A stretch of DNA of 12,830 bases, taken from IMG/VR virus record IMGVR_UViG_2671181030_000005, positions 1-12,830 of that record. One strand, given 5' to 3'. The first letter of the stretch is position 1, and every line of letters starts with the position of its first letter. The translations under genes and the position numbers were made by a program. Shown one piece after another: positions 1,009 through 11,140 of the stretch. Source of the stretch: a virus (Duplodnaviria; Heunggongvirae; Uroviricota; Caudoviricetes). The notes below the pieces were generated by a model. That model saw nothing but the letters and a program-made list of their open reading frames with translations, was not told the origin of the DNA and did no database searches.

Positions 1009-1083
1009 GTCCTCTTAGTTAAATGGATATAACGAGCCCCTCCTAAGGGCTAATTGCAGGTTCGATTCCTGCAGGGGACACCA
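1009..1083 (+). tRNA. argW: tRNA-Arg (anticodon CCU), argW, complete with encoded CCA
   Basis: 75-nt sequence GTCCTCTTAGTTAAATGGATATAACGAGCCCCTCCTAAGGGCTAATTGCAGGTTCGATTCCTGCAGGGGACACCA; cloverleaf with anticodon loop CU-CCU-AA and T-arm GGTTCGATTCC; matches recalled E. coli argW. Confidence 0.95.
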
Positions 1084-1199: not shown

Positions 1200-1245
1200 G
1201 GGTAAAAAGTGGATAAAATAATTTTACCCACCGGATTTTTACCCA
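1200..1245. promoter_or_regulatory. Cluster of GGGTAAAA-type repeats (two direct, two inverted) just upstream of and overlapping the int start; candidate arm-type recombinase or AlpA binding sites
   Basis: gggtaaaaa (1200..1208), ggataaaata (1211..1220), ttttaccca (1222..1230, inverted) and tttttaccca (1236..1245, inverted). The same motif recurs as a tandem pair at 11049..11070 at the other end of the element. Confidence 0.3.
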
Positions 1246-2402
1246 TGCTCACCGTTAAGCAGATTGAAGCAGCAAAGCCGAAAGAAAAACCATACCGCCT
1301 TCTCGATGGTAATGGCCTGTACCTTTATGTTCCTGTATCCGGGAAAAAGGTATGGCAGCTTCGCTACAAGATTGACGGTAAGGAGAAAATCCTGACCGTC
1401 GGAAAATATCCGCTTATGACTTTGCAGGAAGCAAGGGATAAGGCATGGACTGCGAGGAAAGACATCTCGGTTGGCATCGATCCGGTAAAGGCGAAAAAGG
1501 CTTCGTCTAACAACAATTCATTTAGTGCGATTTACAAGGAGTGGTACGAGCACAAGAAGCAAGTCTGGTCAGTAGGCTATGCAACTGAACTTGCCAAAAT
1601 GTTTGATGACGACATTTTACCCATCATCGGCGGCCTTGAAATTCAGGATATTGAGCCGATGCAACTGCTGGAAGTAATCCGCAGATTTGAAGATCGCGGC
1701 GCAATGGAGAGAGCCAACAAAGCCCGCAGAAGATGCGGCGAGGTTTTCCGTTACGCTATTGTTACTGGTAGGGCTAAATATAACCCGGCACCTGACCTTG
1801 CTGACGCCATGAAGGGATACCGCAAGAAGAACTTCCCGTTTCTTCCTGCAGACCAGATCCCGGCATTCAACAAAGCACTGGCAACATTTTCAGGAAGTAT
1901 TGTATCGCTCATTGCGACCAAAGTTTTACGCTACACAGCCCTAAGAACGAAAGAGCTTCGTTCTATGCTATGGAAGAACGTCGATTTTGAAAACAGGATT
2001 ATCACCATCGACGCCAGTGTGATGAAAGGACGCAAAATTCATGTGGTCCCGATGTCAGACCAGGTGGTTGAACTTCTCACTACGTTAAGCTCCATCACCA
2101 AACCAGTATCAGAATTTGTTTTTGCCGGGCGCAACGATAAGAAGAAGCCAATCTGCGAGAACGCGGTGCTACTTGTGATCAAACAAATCGGCTATGAGGG
2201 TCTGGAAAGCGGTCACGGATTCAGACATGAATTCAGCACGATTATGAACGAGCACGAATGGCCTGCTGACGCTATTGAAGTGCAACTGGCACATGCCAAC
2301 GGCGGATCTGTGCGTGGGATTTACAACCATGCTCAGTATCTCGATAAGCGCAGAGAAATGATGCAGTGGTGGGCGGACTGGATTGATGAGAGGGTGGCAT
2401 AG
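1245..2402 (+). CDS. intS: Tyrosine recombinase / phage integrase, P4-IntS type
   Basis: 385 aa from ATG 1245 (MLTVKQIEAAKPKEKPYRLL...); C-terminal catalytic region HGFRHEF ... LAHANGGSVRGIYNHAQY with the terminal Tyr; position directly 3' of a tRNA gene. Recalled as near-identical to E. coli K-12 IntS (CPS-53). The ORF track starts at a GTG at 1209; I prefer the ATG at 1245. Confidence 0.9.
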   Translation: MLTVKQIEAAKPKEKPYRLLDGNGLYLYVPVSGKKVWQLRYKIDGKEKILTVGKYPLMTLQEARDKAWTARKDISVGIDPVKAKKASSNNNSFSAIYKEWYEHKKQVWSVGYATELAKMFDDDILPIIGGLEIQDIEPMQLLEVIRRFEDRGAMERANKARRRCGEVFRYAIVTGRAKYNPAPDLADAMKGYRKKNFPFLPADQIPAFNKALATFSGSIVSLIATKVLRYTALRTKELRSMLWKNVDFENRIITIDASVMKGRKIHVVPMSDQVVELLTTLSSITKPVSEFVFAGRNDKKKPICENAVLLVIKQIGYEGLESGHGFRHEFSTIMNEHEWPADAIEVQLAHANGGSVRGIYNHAQYLDKRREMMQWWADWIDERVA

Positions 2403-2536: not shown

Positions 2537-4627
2537 CTACATATTCACGCATGATATATGCTCAATAATCACTGTCATCCGCCCGCTTGCAGCGGTGGTT
2601 CCAGCGATTTTTTTTACAACTAAATTGTTTTCAGCAACTGTGACCACGATAGATCCAACGTTTGTTTGTGTTTTTACTCCAGCGACTGATTCTATATAAT
2701 ATGGCAATGATAACCCGAAGAACCAGTATCCTTCTGTGAATAGCTTTGCTGCATGCTCATCCCTGTTTGAGTTATACATTACAGATATTTTTACTGCCGT
2801 TTTTCCATTTGTTGTCTTTATTGGTATTAAAAGTGTTGTAGATTCATTTTCAGCTACGTCTGCAGTTACTGCATAGATGCGTTGAGATGTATCGGAATTT
2901 ACGTTAGTTAGCGTATCAAACCCTCTGCAATTACTTACTTGACGAAATAAAACATCAAGAAAAGTTGTAACCCCTGGCAATGGGTCAAGATAATACAATG
3001 GTGCGATATTTCCATCGCCAAGATTGAGGTTTTGCACCCGTACTATAGCCTTCACATACGCAGAGGAACCTCTGCTTATTTGAATTACAGCAGTTGGCAC
3101 CGTTCCTGCCATTCCTGACGACTGAATGTTTCTGAAGATAACCTCTTTGAAGAGATATACATTAAAATTTGTGTTTCCTGTATTGCTATACAGAAATCCA
3201 ACATTCTCTATTATGGCATTACATTTTATATTTTCAGCAATGTAACCATCATATGTATTCGGCGAGTTATTATAAAATGATACCAGACGAGAGATAATAT
3301 CTGACGGATCTTCGCAGTTGACGTCAATATTTCGCAAAGAAATACCTCGAAATGTCGGTGCTCCACTGACAAGACCACCTGAAACGATTGACTGTGGGGC
3401 TGCTCCGTCAGCATAGAAGCAACTAAGTCCGTCTAGAGAACCTCCTGCCTGCAAGTCTACTGCTGACTGCCCAGCAGCAACAGCAAAGGCCTGTGTGCGC
3501 CGCTCTACAATATTGCTCACCCGAGAGTTCATTATCTGTGATTTGACTGATCTCTTCTGGCAGTCTTCAAAATACGAATCACTAATATCAAATACTGCTG
3601 ATAAATAGTTAGGGGATGATGCATATATCCCATCCGCATCCTGATATGGTCCAACTCGGAATACTGAAATATTCCTAACATAGCAATATTCAAAGTTTTG
3701 AACCATAAACCCGCGACCAACATTAGAACCACCTGAGCTTGAAATATCATAAGCTGAGGAATCTGACAGCCTAATCTCTTTCCATCTAAACAATGAGCCT
3801 GCCGTAATATATGCAGCAGTTGATAATCCTGTGTCAATTGCTTCCCTAGCGTTTCTTCCAGAATAGCCTGAAATAGATATTTTTGCGTTGTTATCGGATG
3901 AAAGCGCATAGAGTAGCTTTGCAGCATTGTTCTTGCCGTCAATGGCAATATCCTCTATGGAAAGAACGGATGAGCACGTTATTTTTAAAACAAATGGACT
4001 TACTGCTCCAGTATAGATAATAGTTCCATTTCTTATTGTTGTTTTTTTGTTGAAAACAACACTAATCATCTCGCTTGTTTTAATTGTCATTCCAGACAGG
4101 TCGATAACATACCCATCATATCTATTTAGCAAATAGATTAATTTTTCTCCTTCATCTGTCCCATCACCAGTTATTCCTGCCGATGATGGCGTAACATAAT
4201 ATATAGCACTTTGAACTGTTCCACCCTGCTGAAGGGGGATCATATCCGCACCTTTTCCTTTCCCTGTGGATGTAATTTCCTTCCTTAACTGATCAGGGTC
4301 GTATTTCAGCACATTAGGGAAATAAAACTGCTGCGCACCATATGCATCATAAACAGCCATAGAGTGGCCTTGCACAGTTACGAACTTGGCAATCTGTCCG
4401 TTATATACAGGATAACCAGCGGCGTTAATGATGATTGGCTGCGAAACAGGAACGTGAGAACCATCCTCATTCTCCACATAAACCTGAATCTGGTTTTCAG
4501 GATTTACCGGGTCAGTGTCAATTTTACCGATATAAATTTTACCATTGGCAACCGCTTTAAAAGAACGCGCCATAGTGAAGAGTTGCGAAGGCATGCTTAC
4601 CACAACATTTGCGGTGATATCTGACAT
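2537..4627 (-). CDS. P22-like tailspike protein (gene 9 homolog) with conserved N-terminal head-binding domain and divergent receptor-binding domain
   Basis: 696 aa from ATG at 4627 ([46 protein letters not shown]...), closely matching the recalled P22 gp9 N-terminus ([46 protein letters not shown]...); the remainder diverges from P22. GGAG 7 nt upstream of the ATG. The ORF-track N-terminal extension to 4726 has no homology and is rejected. Confidence 0.85.
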
Positions 4628-4747
4628 TTCATTGCTCCAGACGATGATATGATGCAACCATGATGTGATTGCATACCGAAATGGTACTATTGAGTATTTA
4701 TCCAGTAGGTTACGATGCCATTCCACCCAACTGGTGAGGCATCAAGG

Positions 4748-5014
4748 ATGTACAGCAAATACGATGAGGCGCAGTTTCACTTGAGACTTCCGCATGAACT
4801 CCACGCGAAAATTAAGCAGCGTGCGAAGATGAATAACAGATCTCTGAACTCAGAGATAATTGCAGCGATTGAAGAATCGTTGGCTAAACAAAGCTCTGCA
4901 TCCGTTTACATTGATGATGCAGAGCGTATGGCAGAACAACAATCTGATATGGTTAAGAAAATGGTATTTGAAACGCTTAAGACCATGTATAGCAATAATA
5001 AAAAGGAAACATAG
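4748..5014 (+). CDS. mnt: Mnt-like ribbon-helix-helix repressor (P22 immI-type)
   Basis: 88 aa from ATG 4748 (MYSKYDEAQFHLRLPHELHAKIKQRAKMNNRSLNSEIIAAIEESLAK...AERMAEQQSDMVKKMVFETLK), aligning with recalled P22 Mnt (…PHFNFRMPMEVREKLKFRAEANGRSMNSELLQIVQDALSK…AERLADEQSELVKKMVFDTLK). GAGG 8 nt upstream. Divergent from the tailspike gene as in the P22 immI region, but no arc or ant is present. Confidence 0.8.
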   Translation: MYSKYDEAQFHLRLPHELHAKIKQRAKMNNRSLNSEIIAAIEESLAKQSSASVYIDDAERMAEQQSDMVKKMVFETLKTMYSNNKKET

Positions 5015-5084
5015 AAATCTAGTTTCCGGCTAAAATGGCATAGCCTTCATGATATCCTGTGAAAAACTAAGGAGAGTTAACCAT

Positions 5085-5570
5085 ATGAAAAAATCACTGT
5101 TAATTATCCCGCTTCTGCTGGTTGGATGCGCAAAAGTAAGTGACTATCAAGCAAGTTGCGAACAACGCTATCAAAAGCTTAGCGATATGGCTAATTGCCT
5201 TGATGCCAGTGTGAAGAACGACTCACGCATGGCATCAGCACCAACACCTAAGCTGTATGTCCTTGCTGCAAAGATGCTCGGGCAAGGTGTCGATGAAGGC
5301 AAGATAAGTGACGCACAGGCAAGACTTGAGCTTCAGAATCTTTATGTTCAATTACAAAGCCAAGAACAAGCCCAACAAATAGCACAAAGCCAAGCATTCC
5401 AGCAGGCTTTATTGAATTATCAGGCTGTAAACACAATGCAAGCGATCGAGCAAAAAGCGCGCCAGCCTGTTATAACTCAACCTTACCCAACACGCGTTGA
5501 CACATATACAAACTGCAATTCAGGATTTGGAAACACGGTAACATGCAACAGTAGCAGTAACATCAGATAA
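5085..5570 (+). CDS. Predicted lipoprotein with Gln-rich region, unknown function (occupies the sieA-like position between mnt and the ejection-type genes)
   Basis: 161 aa from ATG 5085; signal peptide MKKSLLIIPLLLVGC with lipobox LVGC; AAGGAG 10 nt upstream; Q-rich segment QLQSQEQAQQIAQSQAFQQALLNYQ. No family recognised. Confidence 0.7.
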   Translation: MKKSLLIIPLLLVGCAKVSDYQASCEQRYQKLSDMANCLDASVKNDSRMASAPTPKLYVLAAKMLGQGVDEGKISDAQARLELQNLYVQLQSQEQAQQIAQSQAFQQALLNYQAVNTMQAIEQKARQPVITQPYPTRVDTYTNCNSGFGNTVTCNSSSNIR

Positions 5571-6018
5571 CAATCAGCAAAGGTACCTTTGCAGAGGTGG
5601 CGCGCTGTTCGACTGTTGAGTCTGTCACCGGGTCACCCGCCCATTGAGCAAAGCGATCATCAACGTAACCGCGGCCTTCAGGTCCTGGCGTATATTCACC
5701 ACGCTTTGCCTTCATAACGTTGCCGGGACCGTCGTGATAAGCCTGAAGAGCGTCACGCCAGTTACCAAACTGCTGGTACATCTTTGCCAGATAGCGCGCG
5801 CCAGCGTCAGCTTGATATTCGGGGTTTTGCATTTGCTCATCGGTATAACCCATATCACGCCATGTCCCAGGCATGACCTGAGTCAATCCTACAGCCCCGG
5901 CGGAGCTTACTGCGGCAGGGTTGTAAGAAGACTCCTTGGCACCCAGTGCAGTCATCAACCCTTCTGGCACACCGTAACGTGCGCCAGCCTGCTCTAACAA
6001 ATCACGGTAATTAGCCAT
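5563..6018 (-). CDS. Lytic transglycosylase (SLT domain) protein, no signal peptide
   Basis: 151 aa; SLT catalytic motif region GAKESSYNPAAVSSAGAVGLTQVMPGTW and downstream AYHDGPG; start ATG follows, in the same frame, the TAA stop of the upstream 381-aa ORF. Confidence 0.8.
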   Translation of the reverse strand: MANYRDLLEQAGARYGVPEGLMTALGAKESSYNPAAVSSAGAVGLTQVMPGTWRDMGYTDEQMQNPEYQADAGARYLAKMYQQFGNWRDALQAYHDGPGNVMKAKRGEYTPGPEGRGYVDDRFAQWAGDPVTDSTVEQRATSAKVPLLIVI

Positions 6019-7164
6019 TTACTGCCCCAAAGATGGAAGATATCCGTAGCGATTAATGAAGTCGATTGACAGCTCGGGGTGCTGCTTCAGGTAATCTATA
6101 GAAGCCTGAGGCGCTTCCACTCGCTTGATACCGTTTTGCTGAACGTACTTACCAACCGCCTCATTACGCTTCTGGTTGAGCGTGTTCAGGATGACGCCAG
6201 CGTTGCGACGAAAGGACTCCTCGCTCTGCGAGTTCTGCAGCGAACCAACAGCCTGGTCGAGCTTTTTGCCCTCGGCATCAGAAAGTGCGCCCATGCCTCG
6301 CATGGCCTGAACCGCTGTCAGGTATGCTTGTGATTTAAAGGTATCAAGTCGTGCCTGAGTGTCTGCAGCCTGTGAGCCTGGAACGTTGGGGATTACTCCA
6401 CGTAAGCCTGTAATGCTCTTAAGTGAAGGAGAACTAACGATATCGTTCAGAGTGAACATGCTGGTTGTGAGGGTGTTGATGCCGTCTTTGTAGCCATCAT
6501 TTAGCGCTTGCTGCTTCTGCTGCAACTGCTGGTTGTTGGCTGCTATGCGGCTCTGTATTTCCTGGCGCTTCAGGTCGTTAGTTTCTGCTGATAGCATCCG
6601 GTCAAGGCGCTTATTTTCGTTGTTAATGCGGTTTGTTTCTGCGTCCAGATTAATGCGCTGCTGACCTAAATTCGCCTGGATATCTTGTCCGCGCATTGTG
6701 ATTGCCTGATTCCGAGCGGCGGTTTGCGAATCCAGATCCTGACCGCGCATGGTAACCTGGCGACCCTGCATTTTATCCTGTAGGTCAAAGTATTTTTCGG
6801 GCCCGAGACTGTTCATCCCCAGGTGATCGACAAATTCGACGAACTGCCGCGGGTTCTGTTGGTACATCTGAGCGACGTCATGAGGATTAACGCCAACACG
6901 AGCTAACTCACCGGCGTTGTTTTGCAGCCATGATTGCATTGCTTCTGGAGACGATGACGCAAGGCGTGCGCCAGCCGCTAAGGTGCCGATAGAATTACGC
7001 TGGTCTTCATCAATGAATCCCATGCCTTTACGAACGGATTCAATCTGGTCTGGATATTGAGTAATCTCGTTAGCAACGCGCATGAAACCATCTTCGGTAT
7101 CTGCCACGCGATGCTCCACGACCTCCAGTTGAGGCCTGTAATCAGCTAACTTAACGACGCCCAT
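6019..7164 (-). CDS. Gln/Asn-rich phage structural protein, candidate ejection (DNA-transfer) protein; function uncertain
   Basis: 381-aa ORF, long uninterrupted; low-complexity coiled-coil-like Q/N-rich middle; lies where P22-like phages place ejection genes, upstream of the immI and tailspike region; directly followed in frame by the SLT ORF. Family assignment is positional inference, not motif-proven. Confidence 0.5.
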   Translation of the reverse strand: MGVVKLADYRPQLEVVEHRVADTEDGFMRVANEITQYPDQIESVRKGMGFIDEDQRNSIGTLAAGARLASSSPEAMQSWLQNNAGELARVGVNPHDVAQMYQQNPRQFVEFVDHLGMNSLGPEKYFDLQDKMQGRQVTMRGQDLDSQTAARNQAITMRGQDIQANLGQQRINLDAETNRINNENKRLDRMLSAETNDLKRQEIQSRIAANNQQLQQKQQALNDGYKDGINTLTTSMFTLNDIVSSPSLKSITGLRGVIPNVPGSQAADTQARLDTFKSQAYLTAVQAMRGMGALSDAEGKKLDQAVGSLQNSQSEESFRRNAGVILNTLNQKRNEAVGKYVQQNGIKRVEAPQASIDYLKQHPELSIDFINRYGYLPSLGQ

Positions 7165-7312
7165 GTTTCACTCCTGCTTTGGCTAGTCTGTAAACACCAA
7201 CAAGGCGCTCTGCGAACGCCCTGTTATTTGCTGCGGCTACCACTAATCCCTCAGGTGAATCAGGGTGTCGAATCTCTTCTTTTTCCTGGTATTTCTTACG
7301 ACGTTTTGTCAT
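7151..7312 (-). CDS. Small basic ORF (53 aa), possible deletion-junction fusion ORF
   Basis: ATG at 7312 with AGGAG 7 nt upstream; MTKRRKKYQEKEEIRHPDSPEGLVVAAANNRAFAERLVGVYRLAKAGVKHGRR; overlaps the start of the 381-aa gene by 14 nt; sits 32 bp downstream of the cII-like stop. Below the 60-aa cutoff of the ORF track; found by manual translation. Confidence 0.3.
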   Translation of the reverse strand: MTKRRKKYQEKEEIRHPDSPEGLVVAAANNRAFAERLVGVYRLAKAGVKHGRR

Positions 7313-7344
7313 AATTACTCCTGTGGATTGATCCAGTAATTCCC

Positions 7345-7641
7345 TCAGAATTGCATATCAATTTGCTCAGAATCCTCGGTGGCAGCCGGGGATTTTTTCT
7401 TTGTGATTCCATCCAATGCATACTTAAAAGCCCTGCTAATCGGACTGATGTCTGATGCCATTCCGAAAGCACACAAGACCGAAGCAATAAATCTCCAGTC
7501 CGTTCTGCTTATCTTCGATTCATGACAGCCAATCATCTTTGCCAGACCGCGCTGGGTAAGCGTTGACAGGTTGATGAGTAAATCAGTTTCAGCGCGATCA
7601 ATTTCTCGCTGTGTTGGCTTGCTATAACTTGCTTGTGTCAT
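7345..7641 (-). CDS. cII: CII-family transcriptional activator (lambda CII-like)
   Basis: 98 aa; C-terminus TKKKSPAATEDSEQIDMQF resembles recalled lambda CII C-terminus (TNKKRPAATERSEQIQMEF); helix-turn-helix-like core ...GLAKMIGCHESKISR...; located immediately downstream of cro on the same strand, as in lambda. Confidence 0.7.
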   Translation of the reverse strand: MTQASYSKPTQREIDRAETDLLINLSTLTQRGLAKMIGCHESKISRTDWRFIASVLCAFGMASDISPISRAFKYALDGITKKKSPAATEDSEQIDMQF

Positions 7642-7725
7642 TTGTTAATTTTCCAATAGTGAATAGTTAGTTGAAAGGTATGCGTGGAAACGCATATGGC
7701 CTTAGTTGGTCAGATATCTTGGGGC

Positions 7726-7740
7726 TCGCTTTGTCAGCGA
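7726..7740 (-). promoter_or_regulatory. nutR-like boxB hairpin (TCGCT-GACAA-AGCGA on the minus strand) between cro and cII
   Basis: 5-bp stem with GACAA pentaloop, the loop I recall for P22-type boxB; a boxA-like CGCTCTTT lies upstream on the same strand (about 7766..7774). Motif-level call. Confidence 0.4.
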
Positions 7741-7778
7741 CGTAGGACGAATGTCCATTGTGAAAAGAGCGGTGTTAC

Positions 7779-7979
7779 TTATGCAGTTGTTTTTTTGTTA
7801 CTTGGGAAGGGCTTTATTTCTTCCGCATAAACGCTTCCATCAGCGTTTATAGTTAAAAAAATCTTTCGGCCTGCATGAATGGCCTTGTTAATCGCGCTTT
7901 GATATACGCCGAGATCTTTAGCCGTCTTGGTTTGCCCAAAGCGTATTGCATAATCTTTCAGGGTTATGCGTTGTTCCAT
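7779..7979 (-). CDS. cro: Cro repressor, lambda type
   Basis: 66 aa [66 protein letters not shown]; differs from recalled lambda Cro at about two positions (M12I, V55I); AAGGAGG 7-8 nt upstream of ATG. Confidence 0.95.
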
Positions 7980-8002
7980 ACAACCTCCTTAGTACAGGCA
8001 AC

Positions 8003-8069
8003 CATTATCACCGCTAGAGGTAAAATAGTCAACACGCACGGTGTTAGAAGTTTATCCCTTGCGGTGATA
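8003..8069. promoter_or_regulatory. Lambda-type right operator region: OR1 (8006..8022), OR2 (8030..8046), OR3 (8053..8069) with divergent PR (toward cro) and PRM (toward cI)
   Basis: Three 17-bp operators: TATCACCGCTAGAGGTA, CAACACGCACGGTGTTA, TATCCCTTGCGGTGATA; PR -35 TTGACT and -10 GATAAT on the minus strand; layout as in lambda. Confidence 0.85.
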
Positions 8070-8076
8070 GATTTAA

Positions 8077-8793
<717 letters not shown>

Positions 8794-8824: not shown

Positions 8825-9166
8825 ATGACACAATTTCAACTTGCATTAATCGCTAGAGAAGTTGATGGAGAAGTCATCCATCTTCGCACCAAAGACGGAT
8901 ACATCAATGCCACCGCGATGTGCAAGTCTGCGGGGAAGCTACTTGCTGACTATACACGACTAAAAACAACACAAGATTTTTTTGATGAATTATCACGCGA
9001 TATGGGGATTCCCATATCGGAGTTAATTCAATCATTTAAAGGCGGAAGAGCAGAGAATCAAGGGACTTGGGTTCATCCAGACATCGCAATTAATTTAGCT
9101 CAGTGGCTATCTCCAAAATTTGCAGTGCAAGTATCGAGATGGGTGCGTGAGTGGATGTCAGGTTAA
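8825..9166 (+). CDS. KilA-N domain protein (N-terminal part of a probably larger ancestral gene)
   Basis: 113 aa; KilA-N/Bro-N-like features (…DGEVIHLRTKDGYINATAMCKSAG…GTWVHPDIAINLAQWLSPKFAVQVSRWV); AGGA 6 nt upstream; sits downstream of cI where lambda has rexAB. Its TAA stop is in frame with the next ORF. Confidence 0.7.
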   Translation: MTQFQLALIAREVDGEVIHLRTKDGYINATAMCKSAGKLLADYTRLKTTQDFFDELSRDMGIPISELIQSFKGGRAENQGTWVHPDIAINLAQWLSPKFAVQVSRWVREWMSG

Positions 9167-9205
9167 AGAGCGCCTGCCGAACTCCCTATCCACCTTAAGC
9201 GGTAT

Positions 9206-9584
9206 ATGACAAACCGAGGCAGAGTTCCTCATACGCACTTTTCTATGCTTAATGAACTGACGTTTAACTTGGTTGCGCCACTTGAACAGGCCGGATATAC
9301 GCTGCCAGAAAAAATGGTCCCTGATATTTCAGAGGGTAGGGTTTTCTCGCAATGGCTCCGTGACAACCGGGGGGTTGAGCCGAAGACATTCCCAACATAT
9401 AACCATGAGTACCCAGATGGCCGGACATTCCCGGTACGTCTATACCCAAACGAATATTGCAGATTTCAAACAATACTTCAACGAAGTGTGGCTGCCTCAG
9501 TACGCTCCTAAATATTTTGCTGAACGAGACCAAAGGGCATTGACGTTGATTGAGAAAATCATGCTACCTGACCTTGATTCCTAA
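9206..9584 (+). pseudogene. Disrupted ORF: continuation of the KilA-N gene, carrying an in-frame stop (9164..9166) and a frameshift near 9450..9460
   Basis: ORF 9206..9511 is in the same frame as the KilA-N ORF, separated by a single TAA; a second overlapping ORF in another frame runs to 9584 and ends just before a terminator hairpin. ATG 8825 to stop 9584 is 760 nt (3n+1), which fits one extra base in an ancestral 252-codon gene. No convincing RBS before 9206. Confidence 0.5.
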
Positions 9585-9592
9585 ATGTTATT

Positions 9593-10853: not shown

Positions 10854-11054
10854 ATGCAACACGAACTACAGCCTGATTCACTGGTTGATTTGAAATTCAT
10901 CATGGCCGATACTGGCTTCGGTAAAACCTTCATCTATGATCGGATTAAGTCCGGAGACCTTCCAAAAGCCAAAGTTATCCACGGGCGAGCAAGATGGTTA
11001 TATCGTGACCATTGTGAATTCAAAAATAAGCTCTTAAGCCGCGCCAATGGGTAA
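10854..11054 (+). CDS. AlpA-family small DNA-binding protein (excisionase / recombination directionality factor candidate)
   Basis: 66 aa MQHELQPDSLVDLKFIMADTGFGKTFIYDRIKSGDLPKAKVIHGRARWLYRDHCEF...; matches the AlpA/Xis-type HTH pattern; GGAG 9 nt upstream; located at the element end opposite the integrase. Confidence 0.75.
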   Translation: MQHELQPDSLVDLKFIMADTGFGKTFIYDRIKSGDLPKAKVIHGRARWLYRDHCEFKNKLLSRANG

Positions 11055-11122: not shown

Positions 11123-11140
11123 GATGTCTGCAGGGGACAC
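11123..11140 (+). repeat. Partial direct repeat of the argW 3' end (CTGCAGGGGACAC); candidate attR core of the element
   Basis: 13 identical bp matching argW 1068..1080, with GAT two bases upstream also matching; sequence beyond differs from that following the intact tRNA. Confidence 0.6.

Follow-up and report, generated by a model that had tools for sequence, protein, structure and literature searches.

Cryptic lambdoid prophages such as CPS-53/KplE1, Rac, DLP12 and Qin have a recognizable make-up. They are integrated at tRNA genes (argW being the site of both CPS-53 and phage Sf6), they have kept an IntS-type integrase, a TorI-like excisionase gene and regulatory genes, and they have lost replication, lysis and morphogenesis genes through deletions, with truncated genes at the breakpoints and insertions of IS elements. 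The element described here, contained in a stretch of 12,830 nucleotides (the whole of which we call the window), resembles them in each of these respects. It differs from them in its ancestry, a P22/Sf6-like podovirus whose early region is of the HK97 type, in that complete cI, cro and cII genes and an uninterrupted tailspike ORF are found in the window, and in that it belongs to a narrow lineage, represented by one in 5,426 complete genomes. The closest complete relatives are the phages Sf6, IME10, Sf101 and HK620, with genomes of approximately 38–40 kb. Their int gene, attP region, tailspike head-binding domain and mnt gene are 94–100% identical to the window at the nucleotide level, as are gp20, the N-terminal part of gene 16, and the small ORF with the start of O; the gene order of these phages as prophages also matches that of the window. 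Unlike them, the window is without some 20 kb extending from codon 35 of O to codon 97 of gene 20; in addition, gene 16 is for the most part missing and the early-left operon greatly reduced. We are highly confident that the window carries a defective E. coli prophage of the Sf6/IME10 type (P22-like, Lederbergvirus) at argW, with an HK97-type early-right region (cro, cII, gp53 and O), in which a single deletion joined O to gene 20.

The chromosomal gene yfdC (1–933) occupies one end of the window and a LacY-family permease of the csc sucrose locus the other. The gene for tRNA-Arg(CCT), argW (1009–1083), provides the only Rfam match at the gathering threshold. Its 3′ end forms the attL core (1069–1081, plus strand), which shows homology to the attP region of IME10 and is repeated directly as the attR core (11128–11140, plus strand); both copies read CTGCAGGGGACAC. 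The phage-derived segment enclosed by the two cores measures about 10.06 kb, versus about 39 kb in intact relatives. It opens with an IntS-type integrase gene (1209–2402, plus strand), followed by a tailspike gene with a P22 head-binding domain (2537–4726, minus strand), mnt/arc (4715–5014, plus strand) and a lipoprotein gene of family phrog_6067 (5049–5570, plus strand). Beyond cI lie a KilA-N ORF, a few small ORFs and the TorI-like excisionase gene. The adjacency of int and tailspike gene, with the att site upstream of int, is the native layout of the P22-like phages that integrate at argW, namely Sf6, HK620 and IME10. Repeated att cores at a known integration site thus accompany a phage integrase, essential modules of the intact close relatives are missing, genes at the breakpoints are truncated, and the junction is found in bacterial chromosomes, with no match in the phage records or in IMG/VR. 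A satellite (PICI-like) identity was also considered and was rejected on account of the truncated and fused phage genes and of the lack of a typical satellite gene set.

The sequence-only reading of this DNA had proposed that a deletion joins the immunity region directly to late virion genes, and had placed the junction between 7151 and 7345. The deletion was borne out, its location was not. Base-level comparison sets the breakpoint at 7061–7063 (minus strand), 88–90 bp past the low end of that interval and inside an ORF of 381 amino acids (6019–7164, minus strand). When the reverse complement of window positions 5500–8100 was compared by megablast with 50,697 phage records, query positions 2–1040 were found to match HK97 with 98.2% identity (cro, cII, gp53 and the start of O) and positions 1038–2518 to match IME10, Sf101 and APC_JM3.2 with 99.6% identity (gene 20 and the start of the next gene). 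None of the 50,697 records spans both parts of the query, the maximum coverage being 57%. The change from cII-downstream homology to late-gene homology that the earlier reading had expected could thus be located on the window, with HK97 identity ending at 7061 and IME10/Sf101 identity beginning at 7063. The two overlap in a TAC triplet, common to the O side and the gp20 side, across which the reading frames agree; the junction sequence is GAGATTACTCAATAT. In the annotation of E. coli EC2641, a PGAP pseudogene described as “ejection protein, missing N-terminus” begins at the base equivalent to window position 7062. The bases beside the triplet differ from the window in 118 O-side and 119 gp20-side phage loci, indicating that the microhomology is exactly 3 bp in any plausible parent. 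An overlap of at least 3 bp has a probability of about 0.05 at a random junction and is therefore only mildly above chance, which is why the recombination mechanism proposed below is something that we infer.

The true product of the junction is the 381-aa ORF, in which an HK97-type replication gene O is fused in frame to a P22-type gp20 (O codons 1–35 followed by gp20 codons 97–443). The N-terminus of the predicted protein (MGVV...ANEIT) equals residues 1–35 of HK97 O, and the sequence that follows (QYPDQIESV...) is that of IME10 gp20 from residue 97 onward. Profile matches divide at the same place: the replication-initiator O families phrog_2365, phrog_345 and phrog_277 match amino acids 1–35, phrog_2534 (positions 98–435 of 435) matches amino acids 34–375, and the match to the Pfam family PF16928 (Inj_translocase) is limited to profile positions 87–217 of 218. 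The breakpoint therefore lies within the ORF and its halves match different parents. The O remnant (7062–7164, minus strand), identical to HK97 O over its approximately 35 codons, brings to the fusion the ribosome-binding site and start codon of O as well as its overlap with the 53-aa gene upstream. With 35 residues of O left, and no Pfam replication-protein domain detected in the 381-aa ORF, the protein is not a full O; with some 96 N-terminal residues missing, neither is it a full gp20-type ejection protein. As it has kept neither a complete O domain nor the N-terminus of gp20, we regard the fusion as in all likelihood a non-functional by-product, and its open frame as a presumable one-in-three accident. 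That the join is in frame (prior probability one third) and that the fusion ORF is perfectly conserved from sample to sample might point to retention; the genomes that carry it, however, are separated by no more than 6 substitutions over 12.8 kb, which gives no power to detect selection. The proper annotation of the 381-aa ORF is that of an O′::′gp20 fusion pseudogene.

The material lost can be read from the intact relatives. O begins at 9313 in IME10, where 30019 is the position corresponding to the gp20 breakpoint; the whole late operon lies between them. This interval comprises the rest of O, a gene for a DnaB-type helicase, the nin region, Q and the S/R/Rz lysis genes, then the genes for both terminase subunits, portal, scaffold and coat, and genes 4, 10, 26, 14 and 7. 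IME10 is 100% identical to the window over positions 7134–7337. Moreover, both exact flanks of the junction are present, on the same strand and 18,617–21,184 bp apart, in 12 IMG/VR contigs of 25–47 kb; one of these, UViG_2563366989_000003, is 95.9% identical to the window across the cII/gp53/O part and 99.5% identical across the gp20 part. The 12 contigs carrying both flanks, together with the identity to IME10, make a single P22-like parent with a mosaic early region realistic. This parent had to be reconstructed from mosaics, since none of the sequenced phages is nearly identical to the window along the full length of both sides.

An origin of the junction in recombination between two phages, with no internal deletion, was weighed against this interpretation. 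The partners could have been members of a tandem double lysogen at argW, or the prophage and a superinfecting phage. In its favor, lambdoid phages are highly mosaic and, among isolates, the nearest sequences to the O side of the junction come from HK97-type siphoviruses and those to the gp20 side from Lederbergviruses. However, the 12 P22-like contigs combine exactly this O N-terminus with this gp20 sequence at a spacing of 18.6–21.2 kb, and IME10, itself a P22-like phage, is 100% identical over gp53 and the start of O. Both ends of the remnant, furthermore, lie in native Sf6-type order at one locus and have intact att cores. We consider a two-phage origin unlikely; the same illegitimate 3-bp join would still be required, so that accepting it would change the history of the scar and not its nature. 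Loss of an internal segment from one prophage remains the explanation that we favor.

There is hardly any chance that the arrangement is native, i.e., that cII, the small ORF and an ejection-type gene are natural neighbors in some phages and that nothing has been deleted. Part of it is indeed found in intact phages: the succession of cII, the small ORF and the start of a next gene, with a 14-nt overlap, is universal in the phage group. In such phages, however, the next gene is always O and never gp20. Furthermore, no phage record joins the two sides, a 40-mer spanning the junction has no match in IMG/VR, where both flanks are common, and the ORF in the window is without 96 N-terminal residues of gp20 and has 35 residues of O. 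The adjacency that the sequence-only reading had named as evidence against a deletion thus exists for the small ORF and the gene start that follows it, and does not exist for the ejection gene.

The small ORF itself (7151–7312, minus strand) has all of the features originally ascribed to it. It encodes 53 amino acids with a basic composition (pI 10.7; 14 lysines and arginines versus 6 aspartates and glutamates), starts at 7312, 32 bp past the cII stop at 7345, has a strong ribosome-binding site (AGGAG, 5 nt ahead of the ATG) and overlaps by 14 nt the start, at 7164, of the ejection-like 381-aa ORF. The accompanying suggestions that it has no recognizable family and that it may be a chimeric product of the junction were not upheld. 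Pfam and NCBIfam hold no model for it and PHROGs alone recognizes it, phrog_1331 covering the full length (1–53 of 53, E 1.4e-37). It is identical to HK97 gp53 at 53 of 53 residues; Sf6 gene 42 and an unannotated equivalent in IME10 are likewise 100% identical to it.

Conservation of this ORF and of its surroundings extends well beyond these phages. Searches by tblastn found it at full length in 97 phage records, each time abutting an O-type gene; the carriers include HK97-like siphoviruses, Stx phages, Sf6, IME10, podoviruses of the epsilon34 and g341c types, and phages of Erwinia, Enterobacter and Cronobacter. An exact 41-mer from the O side, ending at the junction, is present in 118 IMG/VR contigs, 105 of which have enough upstream sequence to be testable. 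The 53-aa ORF lies directly upstream of O in all 105 (96–100% identity) and overlaps O by the same 14 nt in 104. The position between cII and O, with overlap into the start of O, recurs in HK97 and in Erwinia phage Eho49. In alignments with homologues from Erwinia and Enterobacter phages, substitutions at the three codon positions number 12/10/30 and 9/3/26, respectively (the start codon being left out and the stop codon included, which does not affect the conclusion), and many of the codon changes are synonymous. This pattern supports the view that the ORF is a real protein-coding gene; in the EC2641 annotation it is WP_000166961.1. The 14-nt overlap couples its translation to that of O. A literature search directed at a small ORF between cII and O, made without the names gp53 and gene 42, yielded no described function, and neither did the family scans.

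These findings leave practically no room for a chimeric 53-aa ORF. It does adjoin the scar and is without a Pfam or NCBIfam family; against this stand its full-length identity to the HK97 and Sf6 proteins, the full-length phrog_1331 match, its place upstream of O in 105 of 105 loci, the coding-type substitutions and the position of the breakpoint, 88 bp past its stop codon. Collinearity with HK97 and IME10 extends over the entire ORF and for a further 88 bp past its end. Compared with HK97 gp53 and Sf6 gene 42, the ORF shows no difference in sequence, length, position or 14-nt overlap; what sets the window apart from HK97 and Sf6 at this locus is the partner gene downstream, O, which is cut after codon 35. 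The 53-aa ORF is thereby shown to be a genuine, intact and conserved early gene.

The immunity region is likewise unaltered. The cII gene (7345–7641, minus strand; PF05269, E 5e-34; phrog_191), collinear with HK97, and cro (7779–7979, minus strand; PF09048, E 8e-34) are intact, as is the gene for a 237-aa cI repressor with HTH_3 and Peptidase_S24 domains (8080–8793, plus strand), whose region is 97.7% identical to HK97 at the nucleotide level. From cII through the small ORF to codon 35 of O, the sequence is collinear with HK97 (97.7–98.2% identity); in the P22-like IME10, identity is 100% over the small ORF and the 31 nt with which O begins. A pR-like promoter, TTGACT-17-GATAAT (8004–8032, minus strand), lies in the cI–cro intergenic region, homologous to HK97 OR; it would be expected to drive cro, cII, the 53-aa ORF and the chimera.

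A putative oop-like antisense RNA (plus strand) overlaps the 3′ end of cII. Its ends, presumably 7323 and 7399, follow from the coordinates that we take lambda oop to have, the lambda record used being without an oop annotation. The element aligns with the antisense strand of the lambda cII–O interval and contains a terminator-like hairpin (7369–7396) followed by a T-run; its minimum free energy is −30.4 kcal/mol (z = −4.08). Rfam gave no family for it at the gathering threshold. At the sequence level the element thus has homology to lambda oop in sequence and position as well as an intrinsic terminator. Like lambda oop, it is antisense to the cII 3′ end, starts ahead of the O-side gene, is conserved in sequence and has a strong terminator. 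Unlike the situation in lambda, the putative oop promoter region here overlaps the 5′ end of the 53-aa ORF, and the predicted promoter would lie in the first codons of that ORF. Lambda is without the 53-aa ORF, and its O start codon aligns with the start codon of the small ORF.

The distribution of the scar was assessed by means of the junction-spanning 40-mer. No exact match was found among the 2.9 million viral contigs of IMG/VR, the GTDB representatives (one genome per species) or the JGI metagenomes, while each flank alone, serving as control, gave at least 118 matches. Among 5,426 complete E. coli genomes, 978 have one of the sides and a single one, EC2641, spans the junction. Between EC2641 and the window, which are collinear, there are 3 mismatches in 12.8 kb; EC2641 moreover has an IS3 element inserted in the tailspike gene that is absent from the window. 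At least 10 ENA/Logan contigs, drawn from 9 samples, encode exactly the same 381-aa protein. Their identity to the window is 99.7–100%, and those of greater length have its chromosomal flanks as well (yfdC and csc genes). The presence of the junction in EC2641 and in the ENA/Logan contigs, always at argW, shows that the scar is real, inherited and confined to one lineage. Misassembly across repeats is scarcely credible: nothing specific speaks for it beyond the fact that prophage regions are sometimes misassembled and that, in one metagenome contig (L252), a different sequence follows at the second breakpoint (see below), whereas the junction is present in a complete RefSeq chromosome that its IS3 insertion distinguishes from the window and in at least 10 independent contigs, and 3 bp of shared sequence cannot mislead an assembler.

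The remnant shows further signs of decay. Downstream of the fusion, the homologue of gene 16, of the SLT transglycosylase type, is reduced to 151 amino acids (5563–6018, minus strand) and matches only positions 1–145 of 576 of phrog_21143. It is interrupted at codon 146 of 911 by a second breakpoint (5583), where identity to Sf101 and IME10 stops; PGAP annotates the fragment as a pseudogene “missing C-terminus”. The breakpoint joins gene 16 to sequence whose counterpart in phage Gally closely follows gene 16 and adjoins the same lipoprotein gene. The two sides share an imperfect stretch of about 12–15 bp (5583–5597), a length that is approximate as it comes from an ungapped view and the Gally side has a 3-nt indel. 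On the other side of the immunity region, what was once a gene for a 253-aa BstA-like protein, the KilA-N gene beside cI, has become a pseudogene through an in-frame TAG and, further on, a frameshift; the early-left operon is much shorter than that of IME10 or APC_JM3.2.

Taken together, the comparisons suggest a simple history. A single prophage would have undergone one illegitimate recombination event between two TAC triplets, one at codon 35 of O and the other at codon 97 of gene 20, probably mediated by this microhomology, with the loss of about 18.6–21.2 kb. The sequence upstream of 7063, including the cII stop, the oop-like element, the small gene and the start of O, is untouched native phage DNA. 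In lambdoid phages the replication origin lies inside O, and it would have been lost in the same event. The prophage has lost O and the helicase gene as well as its lysis and morphogenesis genes, and can therefore no longer replicate, lyse its host or form particles. Since cI, cro, cII and the pR-like promoter are intact, a transcript running from pR through cro, cII, gp53 and O′::′gp20 should be off as long as the repressor is active and would be made only upon cI inactivation. The remnant probably still confers repressor-mediated immunity.

A more speculative idea concerns the fusion itself. Under cI/pR control and with the translation signals of O kept, the in-frame O(1–35)::gp20(97–443) might be an expressed and domesticated protein; for example, a membrane-active fragment of the ejection protein, produced upon cI inactivation, could cause abortive infection or superinfection exclusion. 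We regard this as very improbable. If true, it would help explain the unchanged persistence of the remnant in several samples.

The scar is a case of ordinary, textbook prophage decay. What the present analysis contributes is the placement of the inactivating deletion to the base, and a junction sequence that could mark, as a lineage, the E. coli strains carrying this remnant. It also offers a further worked example of how a temperate phage is disarmed, its replication and lysis genes being lost and its immunity genes kept.

A second deletion breakpoint lies at 5583-5597 (minus strand), within the truncated SLT-type gene-16 homologue (5563-6018, minus strand). This gene is cut at codon 146, the Sf101 version being 911 residues long, and is joined to the region found 3′ of gene 16 in phage Gally. 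Approximately 12-15 bp at the join are common to both sides, the match being imperfect. Two contigs bear on this site. Contig L252 (ENA ERZ10621109 NODE_8967), from a metagenome, contains the O::gp20 junction and continues beyond position 5583 with intact Sf101-type gene 16 sequence over 150 nt (locus 4094-4243). Either L252 is an intermediate in which the second deletion is absent, or its assembly crossed over into an intact phage co-resident in the sample. Contig L254 terminates exactly at position 5583, as expected for a branch in the assembly graph.

A lipoprotein-like gene of the phrog_6067 family (function unknown) occupies 5049-5570 on the plus strand, opposite to the late genes. Gally, vB_EcoP-720R6 and VSe13, all of them intact phages, have this gene in the same slot, between gene 16 and mnt, and it is therefore a native moron. 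Its position corresponds to that of sieA in P22.

The tailspike ORF, as called mechanically, spans 2537-4726 (minus strand; 729 aa) and begins 33 codons upstream from the conserved head-binding N-terminus; the start chosen by gene callers yields a 696-aa protein. Only the first ~110 residues or so are shared with the tailspikes of Sf6, IME10 and N7, which indicates that the receptor-binding portion is a different allele. The 696-aa frame is uninterrupted in the window and in the ENA/Logan contigs; in the complete E. coli chromosome EC2641, an IS3-family element interrupts the gene (window ~4487-4503; 11811-13018 of the EC2641 locus, L006).

In the immunity region, the antisense strand of the lambda cII-O interval can be aligned with 7323-7399 (plus strand), delineating a putative oop-like antisense RNA whose ends were set by the lambda oop coordinates. 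A strong terminator hairpin spans 7369-7396, with a T-run behind it, and the predicted folding energy of the element is -30.4 kcal/mol (z = -4.1); no Rfam family matched it at the gathering threshold. The start codon and RBS of the 53-aa ORF align with those of lambda O, which places a mosaic boundary immediately 3′ of the start codon.

On the 3′ side of cI lies a KilA-N pseudogene (8825-9590, plus strand), whose 253-aa parent protein is intact in phage PhiR5_2. Its reading frame is broken twice, by an in-frame TAG following codon 113 and, around position 9480, by a frameshift. The two halves are tied by PHROGs and Pfam (KilA-N N-terminus, BstA_C) to BstA, a prophage abortive-infection protein.

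Finally, the remnant retains both att cores as well as intact genes for the TorI-like excisionase (10854-11054, plus strand) and the IntS-type integrase (1209-2402, plus strand). It may therefore have kept the ability to excise, much like KplE1/CPS-53, for which excision has been reported.
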